64,000 nucleotides of DNA from the IMG/VR virus record IMGVR_UViG_3300044506_000040; one strand, given 5' to 3'. Source of the stretch: an uncultured virus (IMG/VR IMGVR_UViG_3300044506_000040) (taxonomy: Duplodnaviria > Heunggongvirae > Uroviricota > Caudoviricetes). The translations under genes were made by a program, and so were the position numbers. Under the pieces are notes generated by a model. That model was not told the DNA's origin. It was given only the letters and a program-made list of their open reading frames with translations, and searched no databases. This document shows, in pieces, positions 5,426-63,611 of this stretch (the first letter of the stretch is position 1; each line of letters begins with the position of its first letter).

Positions 5426-5447
5426 CTGTTATCTCGGGGAATGAATC

Positions 5448-5633: not shown

Positions 5634-5636
5634 TTC

Positions 5637-18389: not shown

Positions 18390-18402
18390 GGGTAGGTCCA
18401 CG

Positions 18403-20727
18403 ATGACTGCACTTTTCACTGAAGGCTTCGAAGCGATCCTGGACCAGATGGACCTGATCAATCGAGGCCTCTTGATTCAAAACGCGGCACCCACGCTGGG
18501 TTCCGTGTGTAGCCAGGCGATCCCGTCTCGCACGGGCTACCCTGGCAAGGCGTTGTATCTGCGCGGTCCTTACAGTACGCTCACGGCGCAGCAGCCGATG
18601 GCAGGCGCTAACTGGACGGACTTCGGCATGATTCCGATGGGCCAGAGCATCAATGCCCTCTGGCAAGCCGGTGGCTTTGTGGTCGGCTTCAGTGCGGCGT
18701 ATAACGCGCAACAGTTTCTGGAGATTGCCCCGGGTGGTGCGTGTCAGCTTGCCTACGACGGCGCCGTCAATTACTGGGCCATCACCCGGAACAGTAGCTC
18801 GGGTGCCTGGGGCATTGCGTACTCCAGCGACTTGCAAAACTGGAACATCCCGCTCAGCACACCGGGTATCAATCAGGGCAGCCAGATCTCGGTGGTGGGT
18901 TCGGGCATCAATGCGACCATCATCGTCGGTAACACGGGGACGTACTCGGGCGCTGCTGCGGTCTACTCCATCAACATGGGCATGACGTGGAACGCCACGA
19001 ATAGCTCGGGTAACTACCGTGCACCCTGCGTGGTGCCGCCGGGCAACGGGAACGCTGCCTACCTGAGCATCCAGATCAGCGGTACGGCACTCACGATTTG
19101 CCCGGTGACCGCGCCCACGATGACGGCTGCGGTGGTGCCACTCACTACGGTGAACACGATTCCCAACGCGACGTATGACGCGGGCTTCTGTAAGTGCGAC
19201 GGGAAGTACTTCTTCGCCGTGGGCTATTCGGGTGCCGGGGGTGTGACGCCGAACCTGAATGGTGGCTATCCCAATAACGGCGTGTCCTTCTGCCCGGTGG
19301 GCTCGGACGTGACCGTGGCCGCCAACTGGAAGTCGACCGGTTATGCATTGCCGGGGCAGATCAGTGACGTGATCGTCTTTAACAACAACATCGTTGTCGC
19401 GGGCGTCGGTGGGGTGTACTACACACCACTTGCGAATCCGACGCAATGGAATCCCTCGCCGAGCTTCTACGGAACCAACGCCAAGGGTGCAGGTGCCTTC
19501 AACACGTGGGGCATCTACTCGCTGGCAAGCAACGGTTCGGTTCTGATCGCGGCCGGGCAAGACTACGCAACGCCGTCGATTGGCGCGATCTACCTCTCAA
19601 CGGATGGCATTAACTGGACCAAGCAGAACCAGTTCTTCTATTCGGGCAGCAGCTCGGGTATGGCACCCACGACGACCTTCACCAATGTGATCTGGGACGG
19701 CGCGCAGTTTGTCATGACGGGTGGCGAGAACAACGGCATGGTAGTCGTGTCGCCCGACGGTAAGGCCTGGGAAACCAAGTACGTGACGGATTATCCCGAG
19801 CAAGCGGGCACTGCCACGCAGGGTATGGCAGGCGTGTTCTTCGGGACCGTGAATCCGGTGACCAACATCTTCACGCCCTGGAATGCAGCGGGCGTAGGGA
19901 ACTACGTCAACGGACTGGGGTTGGTGACGACGGCAGCTTCAGGCGGTGGTCGAACGACGGGCGTGGCTGCCAGCTATGGTGCTGCCAACTTCGTGGTCGA
20001 ACAGAATATCGCCATCCCGTGTCCCTCGATTCCGCTGGGACAGCAGCCCGGGAGCGCCCTCACCAATTACTACGAACTGATCTTCACGGCATCGACTGCG
20101 GTGAATACGTTTGTCGCACAGTGGGCGGTCAACGGCACGGTGCAGACCCTCGTCTCGGGTGCTTGGCAGCTTGCACCGCCGACCGATACGACTGGGGTCA
20201 CGCAGCTGTTCTTTAACCTGCCACGCCAGGGGAACTTCAATGTCATCGACGACATTTACTTGACGACGATGAATGGAGCGAACAACGTGGGACGACTGGG
20301 ACCGCAAAGTGTCTTCGCGGTGGATCCGTCGACCGTAGTGGGTACGCCTGGGTTCTCCAACACCACTGGCACGCTTACGAATGCGCAGGTGGTGGCAACA
20401 GAGCTCGGCAATGCGGAGAACTATCTCTACGCCACGACGAAGAACAAGGCGGACACCTACCACACGACGAACACGGTTCCAGCCACGTTCAATGTGCGGG
20501 CACTGCAAGTGGATGCTGCGATGGGGGCACAGGGTCCGGGGCCGGCGCCAGCAGGCACGGTGGGCGTGGTGAGTGGCTCCGTCTCCAAGCAGAGTAACTC
20601 AGTCACACCCATGGCGGGTCTCACGAGTCGAGCATCGCTCTTCATGGAAACCGATCCGAACACCAATGCTGCGTTCACGGCCGCTGGCCTGAGTGCGCTG
20701 GAACTTACGATCACGAAAACCAATTAG
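18403..20727 (+). CDS. Asp-box beta-propeller virion/adhesin protein, paralog 2
   Basis: Same motif set and architecture as paralog 1. Confidence 0.78.
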   Translation: MTALFTEGFEAILDQMDLINRGLLIQNAAPTLGSVCSQAIPSRTGYPGKALYLRGPYSTLTAQQPMAGANWTDFGMIPMGQSINALWQAGGFVVGFSAAYNAQQFLEIAPGGACQLAYDGAVNYWAITRNSSSGAWGIAYSSDLQNWNIPLSTPGINQGSQISVVGSGINATIIVGNTGTYSGAAAVYSINMGMTWNATNSSGNYRAPCVVPPGNGNAAYLSIQISGTALTICPVTAPTMTAAVVPLTTVNTIPNATYDAGFCKCDGKYFFAVGYSGAGGVTPNLNGGYPNNGVSFCPVGSDVTVAANWKSTGYALPGQISDVIVFNNNIVVAGVGGVYYTPLANPTQWNPSPSFYGTNAKGAGAFNTWGIYSLASNGSVLIAAGQDYATPSIGAIYLSTDGINWTKQNQFFYSGSSSGMAPTTTFTNVIWDGAQFVMTGGENNGMVVVSPDGKAWETKYVTDYPEQAGTATQGMAGVFFGTVNPVTNIFTPWNAAGVGNYVNGLGLVTTAASGGGRTTGVAASYGAANFVVEQNIAIPCPSIPLGQQPGSALTNYYELIFTASTAVNTFVAQWAVNGTVQTLVSGAWQLAPPTDTTGVTQLFFNLPRQGNFNVIDDIYLTTMNGANNVGRLGPQSVFAVDPSTVVGTPGFSNTTGTLTNAQVVATELGNAENYLYATTKNKADTYHTTNTVPATFNVRALQVDAAMGAQGPGPAPAGTVGVVSGSVSKQSNSVTPMAGLTSRASLFMETDPNTNAAFTAAGLSALELTITKTN

Positions 20728-20735
20728 AGGTCAGT

Positions 20736-23000
20736 ATGAGTGTTGTGTTTTGCGAAGGCTTCGAGACCTCTGCCGATCAACCAGATGTGTATGCCCGGGG
20801 GTTGCTCTCGAGCACAAACCCAGTCACCGTCTCGGGAATGGGTGTGCTGCCGCTGCCTTCGCGCAGTGGTGCAGCAGGCACAGGCTTGATGTTGCGGGGT
20901 CCATACTCGGCAGCCACCACCCTACCCTGCGTGGCTGCGGCGACGCCGGACTATGGACTGTTGTCGCTGAATCAATCGGTCAACGCGTTGTGGAATGCGG
21001 GTGGCTTTAGCCTGGGGTTCAGTGCGAGTTTTAATAGCCTGAACACCTTGCAGGTTGCGTCGACCTACCCGCGTCAGTTGGCCTACGACGGTGCTCAGTA
21101 CTACTGGGCCATCACGTACAACGGCAGTGCGTACGGGGTTGCGTATTCCACGGACCTGAAGAACTGGACACCGGTGACGGCGCCTGGTTTTGTGGGGGTG
21201 AACTCCAGCATTCAGATCGTGGGGTCGGGTTCGTCGGCCACATTGATCGTCAGTAGCTCGGCGTGTTCTGTGACGGAGCTGTCGTACTACTCGACGAACT
21301 TCGGCAGCACGTGGACGGCGTTTGCGCAGGCAGTGACGAACTCCAACTTCGCGTACGCTTACACGGGTAACGCCACGACGCCCTACATCTCGGTGTCGTA
21401 TAACGCGGGCTGGAAGGTCTTCCCGTTCACGTCGTTGGCTTCGGCCGCGGGGGCTGCACTCACCTCACCGATGCTGGTGACGGGTGTGGCGTATGGTAAC
21501 TCCATGATCAAGCTGGTCAATGGCGTCATCATCATCATGGGGACGAACACCCCGAGCAACCCGACCTATCCGACGACGGGTACATCGTACTTCAGTTCCT
21601 GTCTGAGCGCCAACAATCCGGCAACGCCGGCGAACTGGTCCGCCATCACGTCGTGTCCGGGACAGATGGCAGACGTTACCTTCTTCAACAACAAGTGGTT
21701 TGTGTCGGGCTACGGTGGTATCTATTCTTCACCTCAGCTGGGTACGCCGTCTGCGGTGCAAGGGCCGGCTGGCCCCTGGACACAGGTGTTCTCGACGACC
21801 ACGAACATCGCGTCTTCCATTGCGACGAATGGTTCCGTGATCATCGCAGTGGGTCAGGATGTGAACAGCCCGTACATTGGTGCGCTCTACACCTCGACGG
21901 ACGGTGTGACGTGGACCAAGTCGAATCGCTTCCAGCTTAACAGCGCCAACATCACCAATGGCGCCTGGATTCCGGTGGTGATGTGGGACGGTAGTCGCTT
22001 TGTCATGACGGGTGGCCTGAGCAACAACTGGATCGCGACCTCTCCCGATGCTATCAATTGGTCGGTGGTGTACGCCACCGATTATCCTGAGACGGCAGGC
22101 ACGGCCACGCTTTCGTTTCCGGGGGTGTACTCCGGCACGCAGAATCCGGCCACGGGCATCTTCACCCCGTGGGGTACGGCTGCTGGTAACGTCGCCGCAG
22201 TTGGGTTCACCTCGGGCGCGGCGGCCAGTAGTGCGCGTACGGTGACGGCCGCAACAGTGACTGCGGGGGCAAGTGCCAATAGTGCGCTGTCGACTTCGCT
22301 GTCGGCGGTGGGTGCAACGATCGGTCAGCAACCACCGAGTACCCTCACGCACTACTACGAGTTGGTGTTCACCCCGGTGCCGGGACAGCCGAACATGTTC
22401 GCGGTGCAGGCCGTTGTGGATAACAACGTGCTGGGCTACATGGGGAACTACCAGTTCGCGGCGCCTACGGACACGGGGCTGAGTCAGCTGTTCTTTAACC
22501 TGCCCCGTAACGGCAACTTCACGGTCATCGATGACATCTATCTGACCAATGCTCAAGGCACGTATCACAACAGTCGACTGGGGACGCAACATATCTACCC
22601 GGCGGTGGCGAGCTCCGATGTGCAGGATCAGTTGACGGCCTCGAGTGGTGCGAATAACGCCGCGGTGGCTGGTGCGCTGTCGAACTCCGAAGGCTATGTC
22701 TACGCTACTTCGGGTGTGGTGCAAGACATCTACGGCATTACGTCGAGTGCCCCGTCGAGTGGCGCATCCGTGAACGCGGTGCAGGTGGAGGGCTTCCTCT
22801 CCTCGTATGGCACGGGCACGTCGTCCAAGGGCCAAGTGGGACTGCAAAGTAATGGCCATCAAGCCGTGGGCAACATCGTCACCACGAACAACTCGCCAAC
22901 GCGAGCGATTGCCCTGGTGGAACTGGATCCGAATACGGGTCTGCCTTGGACGCTCGCAGCGGCGGCCGCTCTGGACCTCGTGGTGGGCAAGACTTCTTAA
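20736..23000 (+). CDS. Asp-box beta-propeller virion/adhesin protein, paralog 3
   Basis: Same motif set; own RBS GAGG. Confidence 0.78.
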   Translation: MSVVFCEGFETSADQPDVYARGLLSSTNPVTVSGMGVLPLPSRSGAAGTGLMLRGPYSAATTLPCVAAATPDYGLLSLNQSVNALWNAGGFSLGFSASFNSLNTLQVASTYPRQLAYDGAQYYWAITYNGSAYGVAYSTDLKNWTPVTAPGFVGVNSSIQIVGSGSSATLIVSSSACSVTELSYYSTNFGSTWTAFAQAVTNSNFAYAYTGNATTPYISVSYNAGWKVFPFTSLASAAGAALTSPMLVTGVAYGNSMIKLVNGVIIIMGTNTPSNPTYPTTGTSYFSSCLSANNPATPANWSAITSCPGQMADVTFFNNKWFVSGYGGIYSSPQLGTPSAVQGPAGPWTQVFSTTTNIASSIATNGSVIIAVGQDVNSPYIGALYTSTDGVTWTKSNRFQLNSANITNGAWIPVVMWDGSRFVMTGGLSNNWIATSPDAINWSVVYATDYPETAGTATLSFPGVYSGTQNPATGIFTPWGTAAGNVAAVGFTSGAAASSARTVTAATVTAGASANSALSTSLSAVGATIGQQPPSTLTHYYELVFTPVPGQPNMFAVQAVVDNNVLGYMGNYQFAAPTDTGLSQLFFNLPRNGNFTVIDDIYLTNAQGTYHNSRLGTQHIYPAVASSDVQDQLTASSGANNAAVAGALSNSEGYVYATSGVVQDIYGITSSAPSSGASVNAVQVEGFLSSYGTGTSSKGQVGLQSNGHQAVGNIVTTNNSPTRAIALVELDPNTGLPWTLAAAAALDLVVGKTS

Positions 23001-23012
23001 AGAGGAATCAAC

Positions 23013-25286
23013 ATGTCGGTTTTGTTTGTAGAAGGTTTTGAAACCTCAGCCGACCAGACGGACGTCAACAAGAAGGGCCTGCTCACCTGCACCACGGCAG
23101 CGCAGTCGGGGGCGGGCGTGATCCCGATCCCCTCTCGCACGGGTGTCGCGGGTATTGGTCTCTTCTTGCGCGGTCCCTATGGCGGTAACACGGGTCAACC
23201 GTGTAATGCAGCGACGGTCTCTGACTTCGGATTGATCTCGTTGAATCAAAGCGTGTACTCCCTGTGGCAAGCAGGGGGCTTTGCAGTCGGCGTCAACGCA
23301 AGCTTCAATAGCCTGAATACGTTTCAGGTGGCGCCCGGTGATGTGGGGCAGCTCGTCTATGACGGGGCAACCAATTACTGGGCCATCTGTTATACGGGGA
23401 GCGCCTATGTCGTGGCGTACTCGACGGACTTGAAGAACTGGACCCAGACGACGGCGCAGCCGGCGACTATCAACATCACGTCCTCGATCTGTGTGACGGG
23501 TAGCGGTAGCAGTGCGACCATCTTGGTGAACAACACCGCGTCGAGTTCGACGGGTACCAACACGTACTACTCGACGAATATGGGTGGCACGTGGGCAACC
23601 ATGAATCAGGTCAATGCCAACTGGGGCACGGTCATTCCGACCACCAACGCGAATGCTCCATTCGTGGGCCTGGCATGGGTCAACACGGTGGGCTACAAGC
23701 TCTACTTCTACACGTCGGTCAGTGGTTCGCAAACGCTGGTGGCCTCGTCCCCGGTGATTGTGGTGGCACCCTCGAACTTCATCTACGCCATTGGTAAACA
23801 GTCCAATGGCTTGATCATGCTCGCAGGTTCCAAGACGGCAGCCGGCGGTAACTTCCCAGTCACGGGGAACGTCTCGCAGGTCACGACCTGTTTGGCCTCG
23901 AACAATCCGTCGCTCGTGGGCAACTGGATTCAGTTGGCAGCCAGTCCCCAGATGCTTAACGATCTGATTTACTTCAATGGCTACGTCATTGGCGTGGGGT
24001 ATGGCGGACTCTGGTACAACAGCAACACAGCTGCATCCGCATGGACGCTGGGTACGGGCTTTGCGAGCGGTAGCACGAACGTGGTCTCTGCGATCGCCAC
24101 CAATGGTTCCATCGCGGTGGCTGTCGGAACCGATCCCACTGTGGCCGGTAGTGGCGCCATCTGGACGAGCACGAACGGGACGACCTGGACGAAGGCTAAC
24201 CGGTTTATCTTCAACGGAGCAGCAGCGACATCCAGTGCAGTCCTCACCAGTGTGACGTGGGATGGGACGCGCTTCATTGCCACGGGTGGCCTGAACAGTA
24301 ATGTGGTGGCGACATCCACGGATGGGATTTCGTGGTACGTCATCAGTGCGACGGATTACGCGGAAGCCGCAACGGGGTTGACGAGTATGGCGTTCCTGGG
24401 TGTGTTCTCGGGAACCCAGAGTCCATCGACCGGCATCTTTACGCCGTGGGGCACAGCGGCTGGCAATACGTCCGGCGCGGGCTTCACGTGTTCGACGTCG
24501 TCGGGTGGGACACGGACTGTCACTGCGGCTGCTGTCACAGCGAATGCCTTGGTGAATGGCTCGAGTCTGAGTGTGTCGGCTGTCGCCGCTGCGTTGGGTG
24601 CACAGCCTCCTGCCACGCTCTCGCACTACTACGAACTGGTCTTCACGGCTGTCGCGGGCACGCCTAACCTCTTTAACGTCGTGGCGTTGATCGATGGCGT
24701 GAGTGTGGGGACATTGGTGGGTCAGTTGCAGATGGCGGCGACTACCGATACGACGGGTGTTTCTCAGGCCTTCCTGAATCTGCCACGCTCGGGCTGCTTC
24801 ACCCAGGTGGATGACATCTATCTGACCAACTTCTCGGGGGCGTATCACAACGGTCGACTGGGCACGCAACGCATCTACCCGATCGTTGCAAGCTCGGATG
24901 TGAGCGATCAGCTGACCACGAGTAACAATGGCGCGACCAACTCCAACACGGTCAACGCCGAGCTCTCCAACGCGGAAGGGTATGTGTACTCGACTGCCAC
25001 CACAGCGCAAGACATCTATGGGACGACGAACGCAGTGCCGTCTTCTGGGGTGAGTATCAACGCGGTGCAGATGGAAGGGTTCCTGGCGACCTACAACGGG
25101 TCTTCGCCTTCCACGGGGCAGATTGGCGTGCAAAGCAATGGCAAGCAATCGCTGGGCGTGAGCCTCACAACCTCGGGGGCACCCACGCGCGCTGTGGCAC
25201 TTGTCGAGCTTGATCCGAACACCAATGCGCCTTGGACGAATTCTGGCTTAAATGCTGTGGATATCGTCGTCGCAAAGACTTCTTAA
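23013..25286 (+). CDS. Asp-box beta-propeller virion/adhesin protein, paralog 4
   Basis: Same motif set; own RBS GAGGA. Confidence 0.78.
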   Translation: MSVLFVEGFETSADQTDVNKKGLLTCTTAAQSGAGVIPIPSRTGVAGIGLFLRGPYGGNTGQPCNAATVSDFGLISLNQSVYSLWQAGGFAVGVNASFNSLNTFQVAPGDVGQLVYDGATNYWAICYTGSAYVVAYSTDLKNWTQTTAQPATINITSSICVTGSGSSATILVNNTASSSTGTNTYYSTNMGGTWATMNQVNANWGTVIPTTNANAPFVGLAWVNTVGYKLYFYTSVSGSQTLVASSPVIVVAPSNFIYAIGKQSNGLIMLAGSKTAAGGNFPVTGNVSQVTTCLASNNPSLVGNWIQLAASPQMLNDLIYFNGYVIGVGYGGLWYNSNTAASAWTLGTGFASGSTNVVSAIATNGSIAVAVGTDPTVAGSGAIWTSTNGTTWTKANRFIFNGAAATSSAVLTSVTWDGTRFIATGGLNSNVVATSTDGISWYVISATDYAEAATGLTSMAFLGVFSGTQSPSTGIFTPWGTAAGNTSGAGFTCSTSSGGTRTVTAAAVTANALVNGSSLSVSAVAAALGAQPPATLSHYYELVFTAVAGTPNLFNVVALIDGVSVGTLVGQLQMAATTDTTGVSQAFLNLPRSGCFTQVDDIYLTNFSGAYHNGRLGTQRIYPIVASSDVSDQLTTSNNGATNSNTVNAELSNAEGYVYSTATTAQDIYGTTNAVPSSGVSINAVQMEGFLATYNGSSPSTGQIGVQSNGKQSLGVSLTTSGAPTRAVALVELDPNTNAPWTNSGLNAVDIVVAKTS

Positions 25287-25298
25287 AGTGAGATCAAC

Positions 25299-27611
25299 AT
25301 GTCTGTTTTGTATTTCGAAGGGTTCGAGACGTGCGCGGATGAAACCGATGTGGTTTACCGCGGCTGGGATCTCGACCAGACTGCGAGCTTGAGCGGTCAG
25401 AACGTACTGCCGCTGCCCGCCCGTAACGGCGTGGCCAACACCATCGGGCTGATGCTGCGTGGTCCGTACACGACGGGCTCGCTCACCTACGCGCCGAACT
25501 CGGGCAACCCGGACTTCGGTCTGAAGGATCTGGGCCAGTCGATCTATTCGCTCTGGCAAGCGGGTGGTTTCTCCATCGGCTTCAATGCCACGTTCAACAA
25601 GACGATTCAGCTGCAAGTCGCGCCAAGCAACCCGCAGCAGATTCGTTACGATGGCAGCACGTATTACTGGGCGATCTGTCTGAATGCTGCCACCTACGTG
25701 GTGTGCTACTCGTCGGATCTCCAGAACTGGATTCAGTGCCCAACGCAGCCGACGGCCATTGGTCAGCAATCGACCATCACGATTTCGGGTTCGGGTTCGA
25801 GCGCGACGGTGATCGTGTCGAACAGCATGAACAGCTTGGCCAACGCCATCTACTACACGACCAACATGGGTCTGACGTGGACGGCCTCGGCTGCCATCAC
25901 CAACCCGAAGTACCTCGTGGCAACGGGCAACAGTGCTGCGCCCTTCATCCTGCCGTATTCGTCGGGCACGGGTCTGGGCGTAGGCTTGCTCTCGAGCGCG
26001 TTGGCATTTACGGCCATCAGTGCGACGCAGCTGGTCGCTACGGGTGCGAACTCGACCGGTGCTGCGAAGCTCGTCAATGGTGTCGTGATGACTTGGGGGA
26101 CGACGGGTACGGCCCTGACAAGCATCACGGGTGCAATCAACACGTACTTCTCGTGGATTCAGGCGAACAACTCGGGGATCGCAACCGCTGCGAACTGGAC
26201 GGCGGGCAGCTCACTGCCAGGCTTCCAGATTGCCGACATGACCTACATCAACGGCTACTGGGTAGCGGTGGGTTATGGTGGTATCTATATCGCCACGCAA
26301 TCGGGGACGGCCGGTAACGTGCTCGGACCGACGGCCGCTTGGTCGAACGTGGTGCAGGTAGCGAGCGCTGCGGTGTTCAGCTGCGATGTGAATACGGCAG
26401 GCACCGTGGCAGTGGCTGTGGGTCACGATGCCGTGACGAACGCCTCGGCTATCTACTACACGAACAACGGTACGAGCTGGACGAAGGTGGATCGCTTCCT
26501 CTTCCAAGAGCCGAGCGCCGTGCAGAACAACACGTTCACGAACGTCTTCTGGGACGGTCACCGCTTCGTGCTCACGGGTGGTTTGAACAACAACGTGATC
26601 GCCGTGTCGACCGACGGTATTGCGTGGAACGCGCTCTACTACCCGGACTACACGGAAGCCGCCGGCACGACCAGTGGTAACGTGGCAGGTGTCTACTCGG
26701 GTACGCTCACCGCGGGTACGTATCTGGACACGACCTCGTCGACGTCGAACGCGGGTTCGTTCGTGCCCTGGAGCACGGCCACGACCGCGGGCTTCGCTTC
26801 GGGTCTGGGCTTCACGGTAGGTGCAGCCACGCAGGGTCTGAACGTGATCACGCGTACGGTGCAGGGGATTGCGCTCGCAGGTGCTACGACTGGCATGACG
26901 CTGACCAACGTGGCCAACGCCGCGCAGAACATCCCGTGTACGGGTAACCTGACGAACTACTACGAGATCATCGCAACAGCGGTCCCGGGTACGACGAACC
27001 AGTTCACGGTGCAGTACGCCATCAACGGCGTGGTCCTGCCGGGTACGCAAACGGCACAGTTCGCGGCCACTACCGATACGACGGGTGCTTCTCGCCTGCT
27101 GTTCAACTTGCCGCAGACTGGTAACTTCGTGATGATCGACGACATCTATCTCACGAACTTCGCCGGGACGATCGGTGTGGGTCAGCTGGGTCCCCAGGTC
27201 GTGATGCCGCTGGCTTTGGCTGGCGACGTGAGCGACCAGCTCACCAACAGCATCAACGGCAACACCAACGCGAAGACGGTGAATACGCCGCTCTCGAACT
27301 CCGAGGGTTACGTGTACTCCAGCACGCCGGGGGTGAAGGACACCTACAGCACGAGCAACACCGTGCCGGCAAGTTACAAGATCAATGCCGTGCAGGTCGA
27401 AGGCTTCTTCGCTGCTTACGGTCCGATCGGCGCGAACTGCCAGATTCAGATGAGCAGCAACGGTCAGGTGGTCGCGGGTAACACGGTGGCTGCCAACAGT
27501 GCGACGCCGCTCTTCTCGGCTGCGCTCTCGCAGGTCGACCCGAACACTGGCGCGGCCTGGACCGCAGCGGGCTTGAACGCCTTGAATGTGGTGGCGAACA
27601 AGATCAACTAA
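25299..27611 (+). CDS. Asp-box beta-propeller virion/adhesin protein, paralog 5
   Basis: Same motif set. Confidence 0.78.
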   Translation: MSVLYFEGFETCADETDVVYRGWDLDQTASLSGQNVLPLPARNGVANTIGLMLRGPYTTGSLTYAPNSGNPDFGLKDLGQSIYSLWQAGGFSIGFNATFNKTIQLQVAPSNPQQIRYDGSTYYWAICLNAATYVVCYSSDLQNWIQCPTQPTAIGQQSTITISGSGSSATVIVSNSMNSLANAIYYTTNMGLTWTASAAITNPKYLVATGNSAAPFILPYSSGTGLGVGLLSSALAFTAISATQLVATGANSTGAAKLVNGVVMTWGTTGTALTSITGAINTYFSWIQANNSGIATAANWTAGSSLPGFQIADMTYINGYWVAVGYGGIYIATQSGTAGNVLGPTAAWSNVVQVASAAVFSCDVNTAGTVAVAVGHDAVTNASAIYYTNNGTSWTKVDRFLFQEPSAVQNNTFTNVFWDGHRFVLTGGLNNNVIAVSTDGIAWNALYYPDYTEAAGTTSGNVAGVYSGTLTAGTYLDTTSSTSNAGSFVPWSTATTAGFASGLGFTVGAATQGLNVITRTVQGIALAGATTGMTLTNVANAAQNIPCTGNLTNYYEIIATAVPGTTNQFTVQYAINGVVLPGTQTAQFAATTDTTGASRLLFNLPQTGNFVMIDDIYLTNFAGTIGVGQLGPQVVMPLALAGDVSDQLTNSINGNTNAKTVNTPLSNSEGYVYSSTPGVKDTYSTSNTVPASYKINAVQVEGFFAAYGPIGANCQIQMSSNGQVVAGNTVAANSATPLFSAALSQVDPNTGAAWTAAGLNALNVVANKIN

Positions 27612-27620
27612 GAGGTACGT

Positions 27621-29942
27621 ATGTCTTTAGTGATGGCGGAAGGCTTTGAGGCAACATTCGATCAAAGCGACCTGACTGCCGCGAAGGGGTGGATGACGTC
27701 ACAGTCCATCACCATCAACGGCAATACGGTAGTCGGCGTTCCGTCGCGCACTGGTGTTCCTGGCACGGGCCTGATGTTGAAGGGCCCGTACTCGAACAGC
27801 GCGGCGTTGCCGATGGCAACGGCGAACGCGCCTGACTTCGGAATGAATGCGCTCAACCAGAGTGTGTACGCCGCGTGGCAAAGCGGTGGTTTCGCAGTGG
27901 GCGTGGCCGCTACGTTTAACAAAGTGAGTCAGTTGGAAGTCGCACCGTACTACTGTAACCAGATTCAGTACGATGGTGCGGGCACCTACTGGGCTGTGGC
28001 CGTCTTGAATGGTACGACGGGTGTGGTGGTGCACTCCACCGATTTGCAGAACTGGACGCTCACCCAGGCCCAGCCTGCTGCCATCTCGCCGTATTCGAGC
28101 ATTGCGGTGTATGGCTCGGGGGCGAATGCTGCCATCGTGGTGTTTCAGAACAACACGGGTATCGGCACCGGTCAGTTCGTGATGGCGGGCTATGGCTCGA
28201 CCAACGGTGGCGTGTCGTGGACCGTCATGTTGAACACCACGAACTGGAACTCGTACATCGGCGTGGGAGCGATTACGCCTTTGCCTGGCGCGCCGAGCGG
28301 TTATGAGTTCTTCGCCTATCCGCCGACCAATGCAAACGGCTGGGTGCTGATTCCGGGCTTTGTTCCGGCTGTGGGTTCCGGCTACACGGTCTGGGGCGCA
28401 ACGTACTACTCGGGTACGACGGCCGTCACGAACACGTCGAATCGGCAATGGTACTCGATTGGTCGCACCAAATCGGGCTGGGCCTGCTTGACGGGCTTCT
28501 CGCCCACGTCCGGCGAGGCGATGCCGTATGCCCAGCAGGCGAAGACCACGCAATGGGCGATGACTCCGATTACGTCGTTGCAACAGCTGTATAGCTCGAC
28601 GATCCCGGCCACGCAGTTGGACATCTGCTACTTCGCGGGTGGTAACGTGTGGATCTCGGTGGGTTACGGCGGCATTTACACCATCGCCAATCCGGGCACG
28701 CCGAGCAGTATCCAGTGTCCGACTACGGGTGTGTGGGCACAGCCGCTCAATGTGGGCGGCGGCGTGGTGACTTCGGTGGACTGTAATGGCTCCATCGCGG
28801 TGGCCGTTGGTAGTGACCCTCTCACGGGTAACGGTTGTCTGTGGACTTCGAAGGACGGGGCCACGTGGTCGAAGTCCGATCGCTTCTTGTGGTCGGGCTC
28901 GGGCGGTTCCACCTTCACCGGGGTGTTCTGGGATGGTCTGCGCTTTGTCTTGACGGGCTGTCTGAGTAACGCCGTGCTTGCGGTCTCACCTGACGGTATT
29001 GCGTGGACGCCGATGTACTACCCGGACTACACCGAGCAAACGGTAGCAGGCACTGCATCGCTTCTGGGTGTCTACGGGGGCACGCAGTCCAACGGTGCCT
29101 TCGTGCCGTGGAACAACACCACTGGTCAAAACGTGGGGGCGGGCATCATGCCGGGGGCAGTGGCGGGTAGCGGGAACAACACCTATCGGCCCGTCTCGGC
29201 ATACCTGGCACCAGGCAGTGGGTCGGCCACTGCGCAGGGTAGCGCACAAAACGTGCCGATCGCTTCCGGGCTGACTCACTACTACGAACTGATCTTCACC
29301 TCGGTGGCGGGGCAACCCAATCAGTTCACGGTGCAGTGGGCGATTGACACGTCGATCATTGGTCCGCTCAATGGGGGCAGTCCAGTGCAACTCGCGCCTT
29401 CCGGGGACACGGGCGTCACGGGTCTCTACTTGAACCTGCCGCGTAACGGTCAGTTCACAGTTGTGGACGATATGTACACGACCAACATGACCAACGACCC
29501 GACGGGTGCGTACGGGCAACAGGGGACGATTAACATCATCCCTGATCCACTCAATGGCGATTCGAGTACGCAGTTCTCGACGTCCAATGCGGGCTCACAT
29601 GCGAGTATTGTGAACACCACGCTTTCCAATTCGGAAGGCTCGATCTACAGTGCCACGCAAGGGCAAACGGACGTCTTCAATACGAACCCGACTATCCCGG
29701 CCAACTACCGGGTGCAGGCTGTGATCGTGGAAGGCTACTTTGCAAAGTACTCGGGCGCGGGTGCTAACGGCGCGGTAGGGGTGGTGAGTGGCACGAAGAG
29801 TGTCCAGGGCTCGCAAGGGGCGGGCACAGGTTTCCAAACCGGATACAGTCAGTTGATTCAGACGACTGATCCGAATACGGGTGCTGCGTGGACCGCGGCC
29901 GGACTTCAATCGATGAAAGTGTCGGTCACTAAGACGACCTAA
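27621..29942 (+). CDS. Asp-box beta-propeller virion/adhesin protein, paralog 6
   Basis: Same motif set; own RBS GAGG. Confidence 0.78.
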   Translation: MSLVMAEGFEATFDQSDLTAAKGWMTSQSITINGNTVVGVPSRTGVPGTGLMLKGPYSNSAALPMATANAPDFGMNALNQSVYAAWQSGGFAVGVAATFNKVSQLEVAPYYCNQIQYDGAGTYWAVAVLNGTTGVVVHSTDLQNWTLTQAQPAAISPYSSIAVYGSGANAAIVVFQNNTGIGTGQFVMAGYGSTNGGVSWTVMLNTTNWNSYIGVGAITPLPGAPSGYEFFAYPPTNANGWVLIPGFVPAVGSGYTVWGATYYSGTTAVTNTSNRQWYSIGRTKSGWACLTGFSPTSGEAMPYAQQAKTTQWAMTPITSLQQLYSSTIPATQLDICYFAGGNVWISVGYGGIYTIANPGTPSSIQCPTTGVWAQPLNVGGGVVTSVDCNGSIAVAVGSDPLTGNGCLWTSKDGATWSKSDRFLWSGSGGSTFTGVFWDGLRFVLTGCLSNAVLAVSPDGIAWTPMYYPDYTEQTVAGTASLLGVYGGTQSNGAFVPWNNTTGQNVGAGIMPGAVAGSGNNTYRPVSAYLAPGSGSATAQGSAQNVPIASGLTHYYELIFTSVAGQPNQFTVQWAIDTSIIGPLNGGSPVQLAPSGDTGVTGLYLNLPRNGQFTVVDDMYTTNMTNDPTGAYGQQGTINIIPDPLNGDSSTQFSTSNAGSHASIVNTTLSNSEGSIYSATQGQTDVFNTNPTIPANYRVQAVIVEGYFAKYSGAGANGAVGVVSGTKSVQGSQGAGTGFQTGYSQLIQTTDPNTGAAWTAAGLQSMKVSVTKTT

Positions 29943-29953: not shown

Positions 29954-31156
29954 GTGACTACGAGCATTCAGGTACAAGCTGTACGCGGGCAAGCGTTGGT
30001 TGGTAGCAAACCCGCGATGACGGCTCAAGCTGTGCGTGGTCAGGTAATGGTGGGTACGCTGCCCGGACTCAAAGCGCAATCGGTTCGTGCGCAAGTGATG
30101 ACAACCGCTATTCCGGGGTTGAAAGCACAGTCCGTGCAGGCACAGGTGATGGTGGGCTTACCACCTCAGCCCGTGGGTGCGAAGGGGATTGGTGGACAAG
30201 TTCTGCTCTCGAAGAAGGCAGCGCTCACGGTAGTGAACGTGCAGGCGCAAGCGCTCGCGGGTGGTATCCCGTCGTCCTCTCTTGCTGGTGTTGGTGGTCA
30301 GGTGCTCGTGGGCAGTACGCTTACGGCAGCGCAGTTTTCAGCCATTGGCGGTCAGGTGCTCATCGCCGCCCCTGCTCCCAAGATCACCGTACAGGCAGTC
30401 ACTGGTCAAGTGGTGGCGACCCAGAAGAGCTCGGCAGTAGCGCGCGCTATCACGGGTCAGATCCTCACGACCCTGAAGACAGCACGCAGTCTGACGGTGC
30501 AAGCCGTGACGGGTCAGGTGGTGGCAGCGTCTCCGCCTTCCACCCAGACACAGGCCATCGGCGGGCAGGTGCTGGTATCCAACGGGTATCGCAGTGCAAG
30601 CTCCCTGGGTACGGGCGGGCAGGTGTTGGTTGCGGTCCCGAGCAAGCTGACAGTGCAGAACGTGCAGGCTCAGGCACTGGCAACCATGCCGCCTTCGGCA
30701 ACACTGCAAGGGGTGGCAGGGCAGGTGATGGTCTCAGGGGTCAAGACCGCAAAGGCAATGGCGATTAAGGGTCAGGTACTGACACAACAAAAGCCCAGCG
30801 CCAAAGCGATGGCGATCCGAGGCCAGGTACTCTGTAACGGTAGTGGTGTGACGGGGATGTCGAACTTCGCAACGACCGCGCAGGTGATCCTGAAGCCGAA
30901 GCCCATGATGCAGTCGTACGCCGTGAACACCTCGATCATGATTCGCGCCTCGGGTGGGCTGACCACCAAGGGCATTCAATCGTTCCTGATCGTCAAGCCC
31001 ATTACCGGTTCGGCAGCCAAAGCTATTGCCGGTCAAGTGCTCACGCACAAGCAGCAGGTTATTACCGTGACAGCCGTCACGATGGAAGTACTGGGCGACC
31101 CGATTACAACGACGCTGGCTGAGCCGTCTCAGATCGAGACTTCTTGGTCTAGTTAA
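29954..31156 (+). CDS. Tandem beta-strand repeat protein (~22 repeats of ~17-19 aa), putative scaffold
   Basis: AAGGAG RBS with GTG start; repeats of x(Q/A/G)(A/S/G/N)(V/I)x(G/A)Q(V/A)(L/M/V) separated by short P/S/K/G linkers. Confidence 0.75.
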   Translation: MTTSIQVQAVRGQALVGSKPAMTAQAVRGQVMVGTLPGLKAQSVRAQVMTTAIPGLKAQSVQAQVMVGLPPQPVGAKGIGGQVLLSKKAALTVVNVQAQALAGGIPSSSLAGVGGQVLVGSTLTAAQFSAIGGQVLIAAPAPKITVQAVTGQVVATQKSSAVARAITGQILTTLKTARSLTVQAVTGQVVAASPPSTQTQAIGGQVLVSNGYRSASSLGTGGQVLVAVPSKLTVQNVQAQALATMPPSATLQGVAGQVMVSGVKTAKAMAIKGQVLTQQKPSAKAMAIRGQVLCNGSGVTGMSNFATTAQVILKPKPMMQSYAVNTSIMIRASGGLTTKGIQSFLIVKPITGSAAKAIAGQVLTHKQQVITVTAVTMEVLGDPITTTLAEPSQIETSWSS

Positions 31157-31181
31157 AAGTTATCGCCCGGGGGTATCTCAT

Positions 31182-31321
31182 GAGGAGAGTAAGTAGACCA
31201 CTCAGATCGCGCGCCCGCATGAGTGAGTTCGAAACTCTCCTTGGTTCCTTTTGTTGGTTTTCAGCTTTGCCTTTTCATTCACGTCCGCATCTTCCGCCCT
31301 CGGGAGGTGTGGGCTTTTTTT
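31182..31321 (+). ncRNA. Candidate small RNA / 3'-UTR RNA carrying an anti-leader sequence
   Basis: Stem 31182-31190 with 31234-31242 and inner stem 31199-31204 with 31220-31225; pyrimidine-rich tract complementary to the AACCAAGGAG leaders; ends in a terminator. Confidence 0.45.
31283..31321 (+). terminator. Intrinsic terminator closing the tail module
   Basis: 13-bp stem GTCCGCATCTTCC/GGGAGGTGTGGGC with 4 G-U pairs (works only on + strand), followed by T7. Confidence 0.75.
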
Positions 31322-31419
31322 CCGTTAGGTCAACAAAAAGGAGACAACCCGAAGTGTTCTCGTCAATTAAAACCAAAGTGGGTCATTCTCTGCGAGAGAG
31401 TATTGCCGGTTTCATCAGC

Positions 31420-31665
31420 ATGTTCACGCTCCCCTTTCCTTCGCGTCCCCGCAGTCTCATGACGTATGAAGACTTCCACGAATGGAAGGAGAAGTATTTC
31501 GCGCAGCACAAAGACCACCATGTGGAAGCCGGCGAAGCACTCGGCCGCGCTTTCTGTCAAGTCCACCTGATTCGCGACAGTGAGTTGGAAGCCTCGGAGA
31601 ATCGCATTCACTCCGAGTCGCTCATCCTCTCGCGTTACGTGGATCGTCACCGTGTTTTGAATTAA
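31420..31665 (+). CDS. Hypothetical protein
   Basis: Coding-like 3' part of ORF 31180-31665; the upstream part overlaps the terminator. Confidence 0.6.
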   Translation: MFTLPFPSRPRSLMTYEDFHEWKEKYFAQHKDHHVEAGEALGRAFCQVHLIRDSELEASENRIHSESLILSRYVDRHRVLN

Positions 31666-31667: not shown

Positions 31668-32054
31668 ATGCGAACTCCATCCACGATCATCTTCCCTATG
31701 CCCGATCGCGTCGCCGAGATGCAGCGCCTCTGGCGCAGTAACGATTTGTGTCTGGATGACCTGACGCTTGAGCGCTATACCGACGAAGTCATTGACGGTG
31801 TCGTGAGTTGCCTGGACCATCAGAACGTGGCACACACCCAACTCATGTCCTTGGCCGATAAGATCAAGCACCTTGAGGCGTACCACGGTCACGATGCTGC
31901 ATTCACCGTACGCAATGCCGGGGAAGTCTATAAGCTCGGGATGGATTTCCTGAACCTGTTTGAAGAACACAGACTGTACCTGAATGGCAAGTTTGATTAC
32001 GTCTATTCCGGCCGGTGCTCCAACAAAGAAATCATCTTGATTCATTACGCGTAA
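31668..32054 (+). CDS. Hypothetical protein, paralog of 36870-37271
   Basis: P..II N-terminus, ERYTDEVIDGV and LY..G...Y.Y motifs shared with the 36870 gene. Confidence 0.7.
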   Translation: MRTPSTIIFPMPDRVAEMQRLWRSNDLCLDDLTLERYTDEVIDGVVSCLDHQNVAHTQLMSLADKIKHLEAYHGHDAAFTVRNAGEVYKLGMDFLNLFEEHRLYLNGKFDYVYSGRCSNKEIILIHYA

Positions 32055-32064: not shown

Positions 32065-32091
32065 TTGAAAGCGAAAATAGCCACATATCAC
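32065..32091 (+). promoter_or_regulatory. Putative phage early promoter
   Basis: TTGAA-N14-CATATCAC, matching the 5-copy consensus. Confidence 0.65.
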
Positions 32092-34985: not shown

Positions 34986-35016
34986 GCCGGGCAGCCGCCC
35001 GGCTTTTATGCCGTCA
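34986..35016 (+). terminator. Hairpin + TTTTATGCCGTCA element
   Basis: GCCGGGC-AGCC-GCCCGGC followed by TTTTATGCCGTCA, tail identical to 8672-8684. Confidence 0.7.
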
Positions 35017-37271: not shown

Positions 37272-37272
37272 A

Positions 37273-37299
37273 CTGAAGCACGAAACAACCATATATCAC
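37273..37299 (+). promoter_or_regulatory. Putative phage early promoter
   Basis: CTGAA-N14-TATATCAC. Confidence 0.7.
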
Positions 37300-37326
37300 C
37301 TAACTGGACCATTAGGTAGAACAAAA

Positions 37327-37509
37327 GTGCACGCACTCGAACATAAACTCATAATTGCAACGATTGTACTCGTCTGTTTCGCCCTCGCGACACTGCGGGG
37401 GCATCGAAAGGTCATCACGATTCCGCGCTACGTCGCGATTGTGGTGAGCGCCGCGGTATGGGGCATGTACCTGGGACGCGCTGAAGTTCTCTACCACTGG
37501 ATTCAGTGA
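37327..37509 (+). CDS. Small membrane protein
   Basis: 60 aa, two hydrophobic segments, GTG start after TAGGT. Confidence 0.55.
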   Translation: MHALEHKLIIATIVLVCFALATLRGHRKVITIPRYVAIVVSAAVWGMYLGRAEVLYHWIQ

Positions 37510-37530
37510 CAGATTTCTCCAGAAGCGGTT

Positions 37531-37714
37531 GTACCCCGGGCATGCTTGGGCTGGTCGTCGTGGGACGATAGGCCTGGGACTCCTTTAAGTTACCGGTACC
37601 GCGGTAAGCAATGCTCTAGCACGTTTCTGAGTCTCGCCGCTTTGAAAACGTTTGAACGGGATTCAGCTCGAACGAGGGACAGTTGCGCCAACAACTGGAC
37701 GCGCCGTGGGGTAC
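37531..37714 (+). ncRNA. Candidate multi-stem structured RNA
   Basis: Closing stem GTACCCC/GGGGTAC encloses at least four hairpins in a 275-nt gap between genes. Confidence 0.45.
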
Positions 37715-37784
37715 GTGAATTCATGACGGACATGCTAGGGAACGGTAGTAGTACTGGCCCATACACACAACGAAGGGATAACAA

Positions 37785-43623: not shown

Positions 43624-45498
43624 ATGGAAGCTGTTGCACTCGAAAAGAATGGCGTTGTCCCCTTCAACCTCGCGGACTTCTACAAGACCGGTCACCCGGG
43701 CATGTACCCCGAAGGCATGAGCAAGCTGGTGGCGAACTTCACACCGCGCTCGTCCAAGCACGCGCCGGTGTTGCGCGAGCTGTTCGACGAAAAGGTCGTC
43801 TGGTACGGCCTGACGGGCTTCATGCAGGAATTCCTGGTTGACCTGTTCAACCGCGAGTTCTTCAACGCCCCGGACAAGGAAGCCGCGATCCGCAAGTATC
43901 GTCGCCGTATGAACAACGCGCTCGGCAAGGGCTCGGTGAACACGGCCAAGGTCGCCGCACTGCATGACCTCGGCTACCTGCCGCTGGAAATCCGTGCGTT
44001 GCCCGAAGGCTGTCGCGTGAACATCAAGGTGCCGCCGGTGATCTTCATCAGCACGCATGACGACTTCGCGTGGGTGGTGACGTACATCGAGACGCTGTTC
44101 AGCTGCGAAATGTGGAAGCCGGCGACGGTGGCGACGATTGCGTTCGAATTCCGCAAGCTCGCAACGTACTTCGCGAAGCTCACGGGCGCACCGCTCGACT
44201 TCATCTACTGGCAGATCCACGACTTCTCGATGCGCGGCATGTCGGGCGTGCACGATGCTGCTCGCTGTGGTTCGGGCGTACTCCTGTCGTTCTTCGGCAC
44301 GGACACGATCCCGGCAATCGATTACCACGAAGACTTCTACGGCGCGGACAGCGACCGTGAACTCATCGGTGGCTCGATCCCGGCAACCGAACACAGCGTG
44401 ATGACGCTGCGCATTCTGCTCGTGATGAAGCGTCTGGCCATGGGTCAGATCCACGGCGACCTGTCCACGTCCTACGTCTCGAAGCTCACGGGCGAAGAGC
44501 GCGACGCGATGATCAAGACGCTGCAAGCCGAACTCGACCAGATCGCCATGGGCGGTGAAGTCGACGAACGGACGATGACGGCCGAGCAAGCGGCAGCGAT
44601 CGCCAAGCGTGCACGTGACCTGCGCAAGCTCGCCGAGAAGGAAGTCATTCGTCAGCTGATCGAAGAAGACTTCCCGGAAGGCATGCTCTCGATCGTGGCC
44701 GACTCGTTCGACTACTGGGCAACCATCACGGAAGTCGCACCGGCTCTCGCCGACAAGATCAAGGCACGTCGCCCGAACGAACTCGGCATGGCGAAGATCG
44801 TCTTCCGTCCGGACTCGGGCGATCCTGTCAAGATTCTGACGGGCTACTTCGACGACGAACTCGTCTGCGATGCAAGCGACAAGCCGATCGTCTTCCCGGA
44901 CGGTCTGTACCGCGCACTGCACGACGGCGTGAAGGTCACGGAACACGAGCGCAAGGGTTCGGTCCAGTGCCTCTACGAATCGTTCGGTGGCACGGAAACG
45001 GACAAGGGCTTCAAGGTGCTGCACGAGCGCGTCGGTCTCATCTACGGCGACTCGATCAGCCTGGTGCGCGCACTCCAGATCTTCCTGCGTCTGGCTCGCA
45101 AGGGTTTCGCTTCCTGCAACGTCGTCTTCGGCGTCGGCTCGTACACGTACAACATGCTTTCGCGTGACACGTTCGGCTGGGCCATGAAGGCGCTGTACGC
45201 AGAAGTCGAAGCCATGTACGGCAAGGATCGCATCGAGATCTACAAGGATCCGGCAACCGACGACGGTACGAAGAAGTCGGCCAAGGGCCTGGTGCGTGTC
45301 GAGAAGGAAGGCGACGACTACGTGCTGTACGACCAGCAAACGCTCGAGCAGTTCGAGCAAGGCGAGTACAAGACGGTGTTCCGCAACAGCGTGATCACGG
45401 TTCGCCCGACGCTGGCCGGCATGCGTGGCAACCTGATGGACTCGTGGACCTGCCCGGATCCGGAAACGAATCCGATCGAATGGCGTCAAGCAGCGTAA
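43624..45498 (+). CDS. Nicotinamide phosphoribosyltransferase-like protein; probable Namat of NARP1
   Basis: DFYKTGH, HDFSMRG, GTDT, ATEHSVM, RPDSGDP, IYGDSI, FGVGS, RDTFGWAMKA, KDPATDDGTKKSAKG. Confidence 0.92.
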   Translation: MEAVALEKNGVVPFNLADFYKTGHPGMYPEGMSKLVANFTPRSSKHAPVLRELFDEKVVWYGLTGFMQEFLVDLFNREFFNAPDKEAAIRKYRRRMNNALGKGSVNTAKVAALHDLGYLPLEIRALPEGCRVNIKVPPVIFISTHDDFAWVVTYIETLFSCEMWKPATVATIAFEFRKLATYFAKLTGAPLDFIYWQIHDFSMRGMSGVHDAARCGSGVLLSFFGTDTIPAIDYHEDFYGADSDRELIGGSIPATEHSVMTLRILLVMKRLAMGQIHGDLSTSYVSKLTGEERDAMIKTLQAELDQIAMGGEVDERTMTAEQAAAIAKRARDLRKLAEKEVIRQLIEEDFPEGMLSIVADSFDYWATITEVAPALADKIKARRPNELGMAKIVFRPDSGDPVKILTGYFDDELVCDASDKPIVFPDGLYRALHDGVKVTEHERKGSVQCLYESFGGTETDKGFKVLHERVGLIYGDSISLVRALQIFLRLARKGFASCNVVFGVGSYTYNMLSRDTFGWAMKALYAEVEAMYGKDRIEIYKDPATDDGTKKSAKGLVRVEKEGDDYVLYDQQTLEQFEQGEYKTVFRNSVITVRPTLAGMRGNLMDSWTCPDPETNPIEWRQAA

Positions 45499-47232: not shown

Positions 47233-47259
47233 TTCAAAAGCAGGACAGACCTATATAAC
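47233..47259 (+). promoter_or_regulatory. Putative phage early promoter
   Basis: TTCAA-N14-TATATAAC. Confidence 0.7.
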
Positions 47260-49385: not shown

Positions 49386-49412
49386 TTCAAAAGAAAAACA
49401 GACTTATATAAC
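49386..49412 (+). promoter_or_regulatory. Putative phage early promoter
   Basis: TTCAA-N14-TATATAAC. Confidence 0.7.
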
Positions 49413-49475
49413 TCCCCCGAGCGCACAAACGTGAAGCTCACTATAACCAACAAACCAAAACCAAGGAGCAGAAGT

Positions 49476-51602: not shown

Positions 51603-51635
51603 AAAAGAAGAGCCCTTTGCGGTTCTTCTTTTTTT
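51603..51635 (+). terminator. Intrinsic terminator
   Basis: AAAAGAAGAGCC/GGTTCTTCTTTT stem with T tail. Confidence 0.72.
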
Positions 51636-51658
51636 GCCCGTAGCCTCAGGAGAAACTC

Positions 51659-51991
51659 ATGACTTTGCTCAACGCTGCTCGCTTTGTCGCTGGTGTACTC
51701 TGTCTCGGTATTTACTGCTGGATGCTCACCCACAAGGTGTCCAGCCGCATTCGCAACAGCCGCTACTGGCCCATTGGCTGGTTGGGTGCGTTGCTGATCC
51801 TCTCGATGGGTGGCAAGCTGCTCATCCCCTTCTTCGATTACCTCCCCATCGACGACGAGGTGGCGGTCCCGCTCCTCTTTGGCACGATGGTGTTCCTGAT
51901 CATCATCGCCTTCAGCTGGCAGATGTATAAGCTCAAGCGCCAGATCAACAATCCCCCGGAAATACTCTTCATCTTCAAGGAAAAGAAATGA
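51659..51991 (+). CDS. Three-TM membrane protein
   Basis: AGGAG RBS; hydrophobic segments. Confidence 0.65.
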   Translation: MTLLNAARFVAGVLCLGIYCWMLTHKVSSRIRNSRYWPIGWLGALLILSMGGKLLIPFFDYLPIDDEVAVPLLFGTMVFLIIIAFSWQMYKLKRQINNPPEILFIFKEKK

Positions 51992-52434: not shown

Positions 52435-52654
52435 CGAGCGCACGGTTGCTGTTCCGCTCGATGCCTACGATAAGTTGGTTAAGCGCACGATGCGGCTGAT
52501 GTATCCGGCGCCGTCTGACTACTCGCCGGAGTTGGCAGCGCGTCACTACCACTGCTTGGAAACCGCCTGCATCACGAAGCCGGAATTCTTGCTGGATGAC
52601 TTGCACATGCTCCTTGAGCGTCTGGAGGCCAAGCATGCCGCGGAAGCTGTTTAA
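52418..52654 (+). CDS. Hypothetical protein
   Basis: Overlapping operon ORF with AAGGA upstream. Confidence 0.5.
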   Translation: MPSPADERTVAVPLDAYDKLVKRTMRLMYPAPSDYSPELAARHYHCLETACITKPEFLLDDLHMLLERLEAKHAAEAV

Positions 52655-52994: not shown

Positions 52995-52997
52995 CAA

Positions 52998-55854: not shown

Positions 55855-55877
55855 TAACTAATAAACCAAGGAGCAGC

Positions 55878-58902: not shown

Positions 58903-58990
58903 GAAACAGTCCTTACGGTTGTAAAGGGGCTGGTGAATATCACCACATGATTTTAGTATTTTAATAACCTACAAACCAAGGAGCTTCATC

Positions 58991-63586: not shown

Positions 63587-63611
63587 ACGCACTACAACCA
63601 AGGAGCCGTAC

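Follow-up and report, generated by a model that had tools for sequence, protein, structure and literature searches.

In phage T4, the Shine-Dalgarno (SD) sequences of the lysozyme gene e, soc and 49 are sequestered on read-through transcripts, and the common start regions of early mRNAs are the targets of two early phage shut-off factors, RegA and RegB, the latter of which cuts GGAG. DapZ, a GcvB-like sRNA derived from a 3′UTR, carries a G/U-rich seed. In nucleus-forming phages, transcription and translation are separated, and how gene expression is timed once an mRNA has left the phage nucleus is poorly understood. Translational enhancers of C/A-rich (ACA) sequence adjoining the SD are silenced by GcvB (PMC3879156), and intergenic ncRNA candidates bounded by terminators have been described for phiKZ, PAK_P3 and 201phi2-1 (PMC10914365, PMC11512511). 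Catalogues of such short RNAs exist for phiKZ-like phages, with no function assigned to them. Here we analyzed a 64,000-nt stretch of an uncultured virus (IMG/VR IMGVR_UViG_3300044506_000040), hereafter the window, in which a late sRNA antisense to the shared leader of early genes had been predicted just after the tail operon. We favor, at a probability of roughly 40%, the reading that the region 31157-31353 is a conserved cis-acting intercistronic RNA element that ends the tail-fibre transcript and gates the two genes behind it.

Judged from its genes, the source is an uncultured, deeply branching, nucleus-forming giant phage, because it encodes chimallin and multisubunit RNA polymerases and its cultured relatives are distant (26.7% and 27%): the nearest cultured chimallin, that of Burkholderia phage FLC9, is 26.7% identical (cultured phages overall, 23-27%), and the tail-module paralogues match Ralstonia and Burkholderia jumbo phages at 27%. 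The window is spanned by a 323,678-bp IMG/VR record, G002, from a 95%-identical relative, in which AACCAAGGA leaders precede, among others, the genes for a homologue of the nuclear-shell protein chimallin (PHROG 4795, 5.5e-55), for a DNA polymerase and for two beta-type subunits of multisubunit RNA polymerase. The source is soil metagenomes: the sequence was found in three soil DNA contig sets only, and the RNA runs searched for it gave no match. The blastn and tblastn searches of the phage collection matched neither the element nor its flanking genes (blastn, 50,697 phage records), pattern and profile scans of viral contigs returned only G002 and one spurious 24-residue match, and scans of genome contigs gave none. 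The metagenome scan for relatives led to a single locus, L022. The region 31157-31353 is identical (0 mismatches) in G002 and in a further contig, X3; this identity is uninformative, because 13 of the 24 intergenic segments of at least 60 nt are equally identical to G002. Intergenic DNA is more conserved against G002 than coding DNA overall (97.3% versus 94.9%), and two stretches free of genes according to our own gene caller, 37272-37784 (513 nt) and 5386-5636 (251 nt), show 0 mismatches to G002, where coding DNA differs by 5%. The window also holds an auxiliary NAD-salvage gene, for nicotinamide phosphoribosyltransferase, at 43624-45498 (PHROG 448, 2.8e-167).

The interval 31157-31353 is non-coding, and the called genes around it are all on the + strand (gene starts were taken from our own crude gene caller; Table 1). 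Six tandem paralogues of 754-790 aa, with 34-52% pairwise identity (PHROG 30887), occupy 16017-29942, and the 400-aa gene comes next; this array and the 400-aa gene are an expanded tail-fibre or spike array. Downstream, the start of the 103-aa gene is placed at GTG 31354, because the N-termini of its five homologues (101-103 aa, 61-76% identity) all begin MFxxIKTK, and the same homologue starts rule out the 161-aa ORF opened by ATG 31180 (31180-31665) as a gene. Over 21 codons, the frame from ATG 31180 differs from L022 by 2 non-synonymous changes and by no synonymous one, and in L022 it ends after 32 codons, with a stop at codon 33. A coding small ORF was rejected, as a conserved frame with a synonymous excess was not seen and the end of the minus-strand ORF also differs in L022. 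The 103-aa and 128-aa proteins had no match in Pfam, PHROGs or the ESM Atlas, and the AlphaFold model of the former has a mean pLDDT of 50.

Table 1. Coordinates of the features discussed, in window numbering unless another record is named.
Feature	Coordinates	Strand	Basis or remark
400-aa gene, last of the tail-fibre module	29954..31156	+	ORF list; stop TAA 31154-31156; G002 homologue 98% identical
SL1, long imperfect hairpin	31166..31251	+	MFE and pair probabilities
SL1 lower stem	31169-31173 with 31247-31251; 31175-31177 with 31243-31245	+	
SL1 middle stem	31182-31190 with 31234-31242	+	
SL1 upper stem	31196-31204 with 31220-31229	+	
SL1 cap	31209-31211 with 31216-31218	+	
'Anti-leader' U/G-rich tract (proposed seed)	31237..31261	+	Reads CTCCTTGGTTCCTTTTGTTGGTTTT
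Block B, conserved and single-stranded, GGTTTTCAGCTTTGCCTT	31256..31273	+	L022 identical save one extra T
Intrinsic terminator, 14-bp hairpin 31283-31314 and T7	31283..31321	+	Without the TATG of the phage's other terminators
Leader and SD of the 103-aa gene, CAACAAAAAGGAG	31331..31343	+	Putative cis partner of 31246-31256; pair probabilities 0.22-0.99
Conserved 103-aa gene, no assigned function, GTG start	31354..31665	+	Five homologues
Island II, 33 nt, codons 4-15 of the 103-aa gene	31365..31397	+	33/33 identical in L022; includes AAAACCAA 31369-31376
128-aa gene, no assigned function, without a promoter-like motif of its own	31668..32054	+	ORF list; L022 homologue
Early-type promoter-like motif TTGAAA-N13-CATATCAC, starts the next unit	32065..32091	+	3 copies in window, 9 in G002
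Best proposed trans target, leader AACCAACAAACCAAAACCAAGGAG before ATG 49476	49445..49468	+	Early-type motif 49386-49412, 33 nt upstream
AACCAAGGAG before ATG 55878	55864..55873	+	Hairpin+TTATGCC motif 18 nt upstream
AACCAAGGAG before GTG 58991	58974..58983	+	
AACCAAGGAG before ATG 63612	63596..63605	+	
Chimallin homologue and two RNA-polymerase beta-type subunits	G002 record 51634-53364, 62766-67082		Loci L005, L006

Conservation in relatives, one of the checks proposed with the original prediction, was assessed against L022, a metagenome contig with flanks 72.8% identical over 1,628 columns. The SL1 core, the terminator and the start of the next gene are kept, but the proposed seed is altered. 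Conservation sets in abruptly at 31165, 9 nt 3′ of the stop codon (63-67% upstream); in 30-nt windows it is 0.93-1.00 over SL1 and 0.5-0.8 in the flanks, and the SL1 core 31166-31242 is identical at 74 of 76 positions, loops included, against ~72% for the flanks. In the 103-aa gene, synonymous changes among codons for identical residues number 0 of 16 up to codon 25 and 32 of 54 afterwards. Because SL1, the terminator and these synonymous-free codons are conserved, constraint acts at the RNA level from just past the tail-gene stop, across the SD, to ~75 nt into the 103-aa gene. As only two diverged sequences are compared, no helix outside the terminator shows a true compensatory change.

The SL1 lower stem has four one-sided changes relative to L022, with all pairs kept and none broken, and an A inserted in L022 is predicted to pair with a U left unpaired in the window, giving an extra lower-stem pair. 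In the terminated RNA, SL1 is predicted to extend downward, AUC pairing with GGU and GGGGG with CCUUU. The internal loop of SL1 (31191-31195 opposite 31230-31233), with AGUA facing GAA, is invariant in L022, where its closing U-A pair has become A-G. SL1 is a single copy by blastn and by a covariance model; the matches of this model were the three sequences that it was built from or that are identical to it, and two further ones (21 bits, antisense to a coding region, and 12.9 bits), which we judged to be chance. No Rfam family reached its gathering score over the window, nor did any appear at E up to 10 over 31120-31360, and the tRNA/tmRNA search found none; a tRNA-like reading of GAGTTCGAAACTC, considered by eye, was dropped, since it lacks an acceptor partner and ARAGORN was negative. 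In the predicted folds inspected, no convincing antiterminator pairing with a terminator arm was seen.

Both structures described in the original prediction, a stem-loop on the 5′ side and a terminator whose stem has four G-U pairs, were found, and on the + strand only; no terminator hairpin forms on the minus strand. Against L022, all 14 pairs of the 31283-31314 stem are kept, with two compensatory and three one-sided changes and none broken (two sequences only), and 31283-31321 is a genuine plus-strand intrinsic terminator. With all neighbouring genes on the + strand and a terminator that covaries and folds on + only, the proposal that + is the transcribed sense probably holds. The form hairpin-TTTATGCCGTC is common to 12 terminator-type sites in G002, and TATGCCG is present in ten; the terminator studied here carries TTTTTTTCCGT in place of TATG, also in L022. 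In phiKZ, late promoters are defined by TATG, whose G is the start site (PMC4666361), and by analogy the hairpin-TTTATGCCGTC sites may be combined terminator/late-promoter modules. Within the window they lie at 8653-8681, 34986-35015 and 55820-55853. The 12-mer TTGGTTCCTTTT has a second + copy in G002 (reverse-complement 75689-75700, ~1.2 kb past the window end), which lies directly 3′ of a terminator hairpin and touches the SD (AAGG) of the next gene, and similar TTGGTTC tracts occur also 3′ of another terminator, at 263220.

Since the hairpin+TATG site at 8653-8681 precedes the tail-fibre genes and no other convincing + strand terminator was found between 8671 and 31283, a late tail-fibre unit of ~22.6 kb would run from ~8674. 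The predicted position at the end of late genes was thus borne out in the sense of the 3′ end of a long tail-fibre unit with a phiKZ late-type start, its timing resting on motifs. A second type of motif, with the extended consensus GATTSAAA-N13-YATATMAC-nCCC in nine copies, stands before the chimallin cluster, the 49476 gene and the unit starting at 32152, and is a candidate early (virion RNA polymerase) promoter. Its copies in the window are at 32065-32091, 47233-47259 and 49386-49412, with six more in G002. The 103-aa and 128-aa genes are placed between the terminator and the motif at 32065, which is the next one; neither the late TATG type nor the early type was found before them.

According to the favored cis-acting reading, the tail-fibre transcript (~22.6 kb, from the hairpin+TATG near 8674) would mostly stop at 31283-31321, and SL1 with the terminator hairpin would give it a structured 3′ end. 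Only read-through would reach the 103-aa and 128-aa genes, because neither promoter-like motif precedes them. In the terminated RNA, the anti-leader tract would be the 3′ strand of the SL1 lower stem; in the read-through RNA, its 3′ half would pair with the neighbour's leader and SD (31246-31256 with 31331-31342) and damp translation of the 103-aa gene. The tract would be antisense-like to leaders generally because this neighbouring leader is a typical A/C-rich AAGGAG leader. As transcription and translation are separated in nucleus-forming phages, any masking would act on exported RNA, not as ribosome-coupled attenuation. We infer the read-through, the promoter absence and the 'late' timing from motifs.

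Pairing in cis had been offered in the original prediction as an alternative, and both partners named there are present, CAACAAAAAGGA at 31331-31342 and AAAACCAA at 31369-31376. It fits at least as well as pairing in trans: the helix 31246-31256:31331-31342, of 11 bp with one bulge, belongs to the MFE fold of the window, and four of five sampled pairs have probabilities of 0.80-0.99. The second half of the proposal fared worse, with a pair probability of 0.00 for UUGGUUUU:AAAACCAA in nested folding; this pairing would cross the other helix. The cis helix raises the opening energy from SD to start from 5.6 to 7.8 kcal/mol (+2.2) in the window. In L022, it consists by eye of 4 + 5 bp around a 3x1 loop, is absent from the MFE and raises the opening energy from 7.5 to 8.6 (+1.1). 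The predicted cis masking of the 103-aa gene is therefore modest, and weaker in L022. A duplex between SL1 and island II, at -44 kcal/mol, is predicted to be not clearly better than shuffles (-35.8 +/- 4.6; 14 of 300 reach it). When start regions are ranked as partners, that of the 103-aa gene comes only 141st of 361 with the complete tract and 53rd of 361 with the 3′ half of the tract. The perfect GGTT/AACC match to the extended ribosome-binding motif described below is not accounted for by the neighbour's leader, and the cis model gives no reason for the near-invariance of the SL1 sequence beyond its fold.

The main claim of the original prediction was a trans-acting anti-leader sRNA. In the form weighed here, a tail-fibre 3′-end RNA of ~140-165 nt, processed or terminated, would pair with the A/C-rich AACCAAGGAG leaders of many phage genes, including those of the cluster that ends with chimallin, and block ribosome binding late. 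We consider this, the main rival of the cis reading, rather unlikely, although the matches on which it was built are all there. The tract after the tail operon reads CTCCTTGGTTCCTTTTGTTGGTTTT, just as claimed, and its exact 10-nt complement AACCAAGGAG stands on the + strand at 49459, 55864, 58974 and 63596, before the starts at 49476, 55878, 58991 and 63612. The 9-nt matches before 51146 and 62868 are AACCAAGGA at 51126 and 62854, and a second 10-bp helix with the 49476 leader is provided by 31250-31259, the exact complement of 49445-49454. Five copies of AACCAAGGAG occur in the window (four on +, each 4-9 nt before a start, and one on -, at 31237-31246), against 0.04 expected, and 0 of 100 shuffles reach five; the 9-mer AACCAAGGA has seven matches against 0.36 expected. 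In G002, AACCAAGGAG has 15 gene-sense copies, all 4-9 nt before a called start, and one antisense copy, and the tract is a 10/10 complement before 15 genes and a 9/9 complement before 29.

The 'shared leader' of early genes was only partly recovered, as the AACCAAGGAG 10-mer is common to them but upstream of it only A/C-richness is. AAGGAG lies no more than 22 nt before the start in 51 called genes, with AACC in front of it in 15 and the next commonest 4-mer in three; judged by these occurrences, what AACCAAGGAG represents is a ribosome-binding motif in extended form rather than a leader common to these genes. The AACC of AACCAAGGAG presumably should not pair with the 16S 3′ end, so that these four extra bases leave the AACC-AAGGAG motif without an explanation of its own; an enhancer or a site for a factor is conceivable. 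The 'early regulon' was likewise half right: two regions opened by an early-type motif account for 11 of the 15 AACCAAGGAG genes (seven in the 264-270 kb chimallin cluster, which ends at chimallin, and four at 49-64 kb of the window), but three have a late-type TATGCC directly upstream, so the targets are probably not one temporal class.

The proposed comparison with shuffled controls came out in favor of the complementarity. Across 361 start regions (-35 to +12), 95 pair with the tract at or below the threshold of -16 kcal/mol, a number reached by 0 of 60 shuffles in each of two schemes (full shuffles, mean 51 and maximum 88; CUCCUU-keeping shuffles, mean 58 and maximum 93). In addition, by a 5-mer log-odds model trained on true leaders, the reverse complement of the tract ranks 1 of 320,144 among the antisense-strand 25-mer windows of G002 for leader-likeness, above 99.4% of true leaders (0.6% score as high). 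In L022, too, no antisense window of the locus is more leader-like than the tract, although its score drops from 36.4 to 25.2. Of the 8-mers of the 197-nt element with a complement in at least three start regions, 14 of 15 start within 31234-31255, ending by 31262, and the remaining one begins at 31272. The RNA has an sRNA-like architecture, in that a predicted U-rich single-stranded stretch leads into a terminator with U7, and the silencing of C/A-rich enhancers beside the SD described for GcvB provides a precedent (PMC3879156).

The comparison with L022 and, less clearly, the predicted energies argue against a seed acting in trans. The energies of the targets form a continuum with no outlier, and those of the block B region (31258-31282) are no better than shuffles over the start regions (lowest energy -20.4; mean of the shuffle minima -20.8). 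The 5′ part of the tract is the 3′ strand of SL1 and the 3′ part can pair with 31331-31342; the predicted probabilities of being unpaired are 0.15 for 31237-31246, 0.47 for 31247-31261 and 0.77 for 31262-31282. Opening is predicted to cost 7.5 kcal/mol for 31237-31246 and 4.5 kcal/mol for 31247-31261, values that a chaperone or processing could alter. The 10-bp seed duplex yields -14.7 kcal/mol, target opening costs a further 1.2-4.2, and the net energy for the 10-mer targets is only ~-3 to -6 kcal/mol. Among these targets, a comfortably favorable duplex is predicted only with the 49476 leader, where the two helices give -28.4 kcal/mol against 11.6 for opening.

In L022, three 1-nt insertions and substitutions fall in 31243-31256, and an inserted A interrupts the 10-mer (CTCCTTGGTT becomes CTCCTTAGGTT; the matching leader form would be AACCTAAGGAG), weakening its duplex from -14.7 to -10.9. 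Judged from this alignment, the proposed seed is the least conserved of the conserved parts, below the hairpin core, block B, the terminator and the next gene's start, and the changes in the tract appear to favor intramolecular pairing. A broader hypothesis, in which the late G/U-rich RNA from the tail-fibre 3′ end shuts off the chimallin-cluster and early-promoter genes in the cytoplasm through AACCAAGGAG while the same tract doubles as the cis mask of its neighbour, is in our view a little less probable again.

A third reading takes SL1 as a sequence-specific protein-binding, processing or stabilizing element of the mRNA 3′ end, the likeness to leaders having no regulatory role. The near-invariance of 76 nt, loops included, is consistent with it, as is the AGUA/GAA internal loop, which may resemble the bulged-G (loop E/sarcin-ricin) protein-binding motif. 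U-rich tracts with TTGGTTC recur beside other terminators, and the second and fourth best antisense leader-like windows lie just 3′ of terminators. However, the exact 10-mer, the first rank among 320,144 windows and the conserved first 25 codons are left unaccounted for, and as a single copy SL1 would not be a general processing signal, which makes this reading doubtful. Improbable, in turn, is an independent short transcript from an unrecognized promoter of its own at ~31157-31180 that is ended by premature termination. Such an RNA need not be late, since it would match the 5′UTR-derived ncRNAs of phiKZ, for which those reports list 17 candidates, with 8 in 201phi2-1 and one conserved upstream of a tail gene (PMC10914365, PMC11512511). 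The abrupt onset of conservation at 31165, 9 nt after the stop, points in this direction, but neither definable promoter-like motif lies upstream, where conservation is only 63-67%. That the tract serves as leader to a minus-strand gene or is a relic thereof, or that the region encodes a small protein, is very improbable, for although the minus-strand tract outscores 99.4% of true leaders and both strands have ATG-initiated frames, the first ATG lies 16 nt past GGAG (4-9 nt in the 15 real copies), the minus ORF has 23 codons in the window and another end in L022, and the plus uORF differs in extent and in its 0 synonymous and 2 non-synonymous changes.

The element, as a cis-acting intercistronic RNA or otherwise, is an unusually clear candidate for study: its core is conserved far above the genes around it, its terminator covaries, the start of the next gene is under RNA-level constraint, and its antisense leader match is the strongest in the genome. 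Like the ncRNAs described in phiKZ and 201phi2-1 (PMC10914365, PMC11512511), it is a putative short structured intergenic RNA with an intrinsic terminator, conserved among relatives, without an assigned function, and in or beside the tail module of a nucleus-forming phage. Most of those described in these reports have a mapped start site directly upstream, whereas no promoter motif is seen here. With GcvB and DapZ, as they are described, it shares a G/U-rich tract that is complementary, in many mRNAs, to the A/C-rich stretch directly ahead of the SD and to the SD itself, together with a candidate 3′UTR origin, a terminator and a U-tail. It differs in that the GcvB seed is reported to be best conserved and accessible, whereas the tract here is the least conserved part and is predicted to be largely paired, and in that the putative targets are the phage's own genes. 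Among the papers listed by our full-text literature search, none was on a phage RNA aimed at SD leaders that the phage's early genes have in common. If the tract does act in trans, it would be a new way to switch off phage early genes and an RNA counterpart of T4 RegA and RegB, which are proteins. If it acts in cis, it would be a tidy case of translation gated after export, at the junction of a late operon and two genes without a recognizable promoter motif. As in T4 e, soc and 49, an upstream segment of the transcript would then pair with the ribosome-binding site of the next gene and make its translation dependent on the RNA species; in T4, however, a promoter inside or after the masking segment yields a translatable RNA, and none is seen here.
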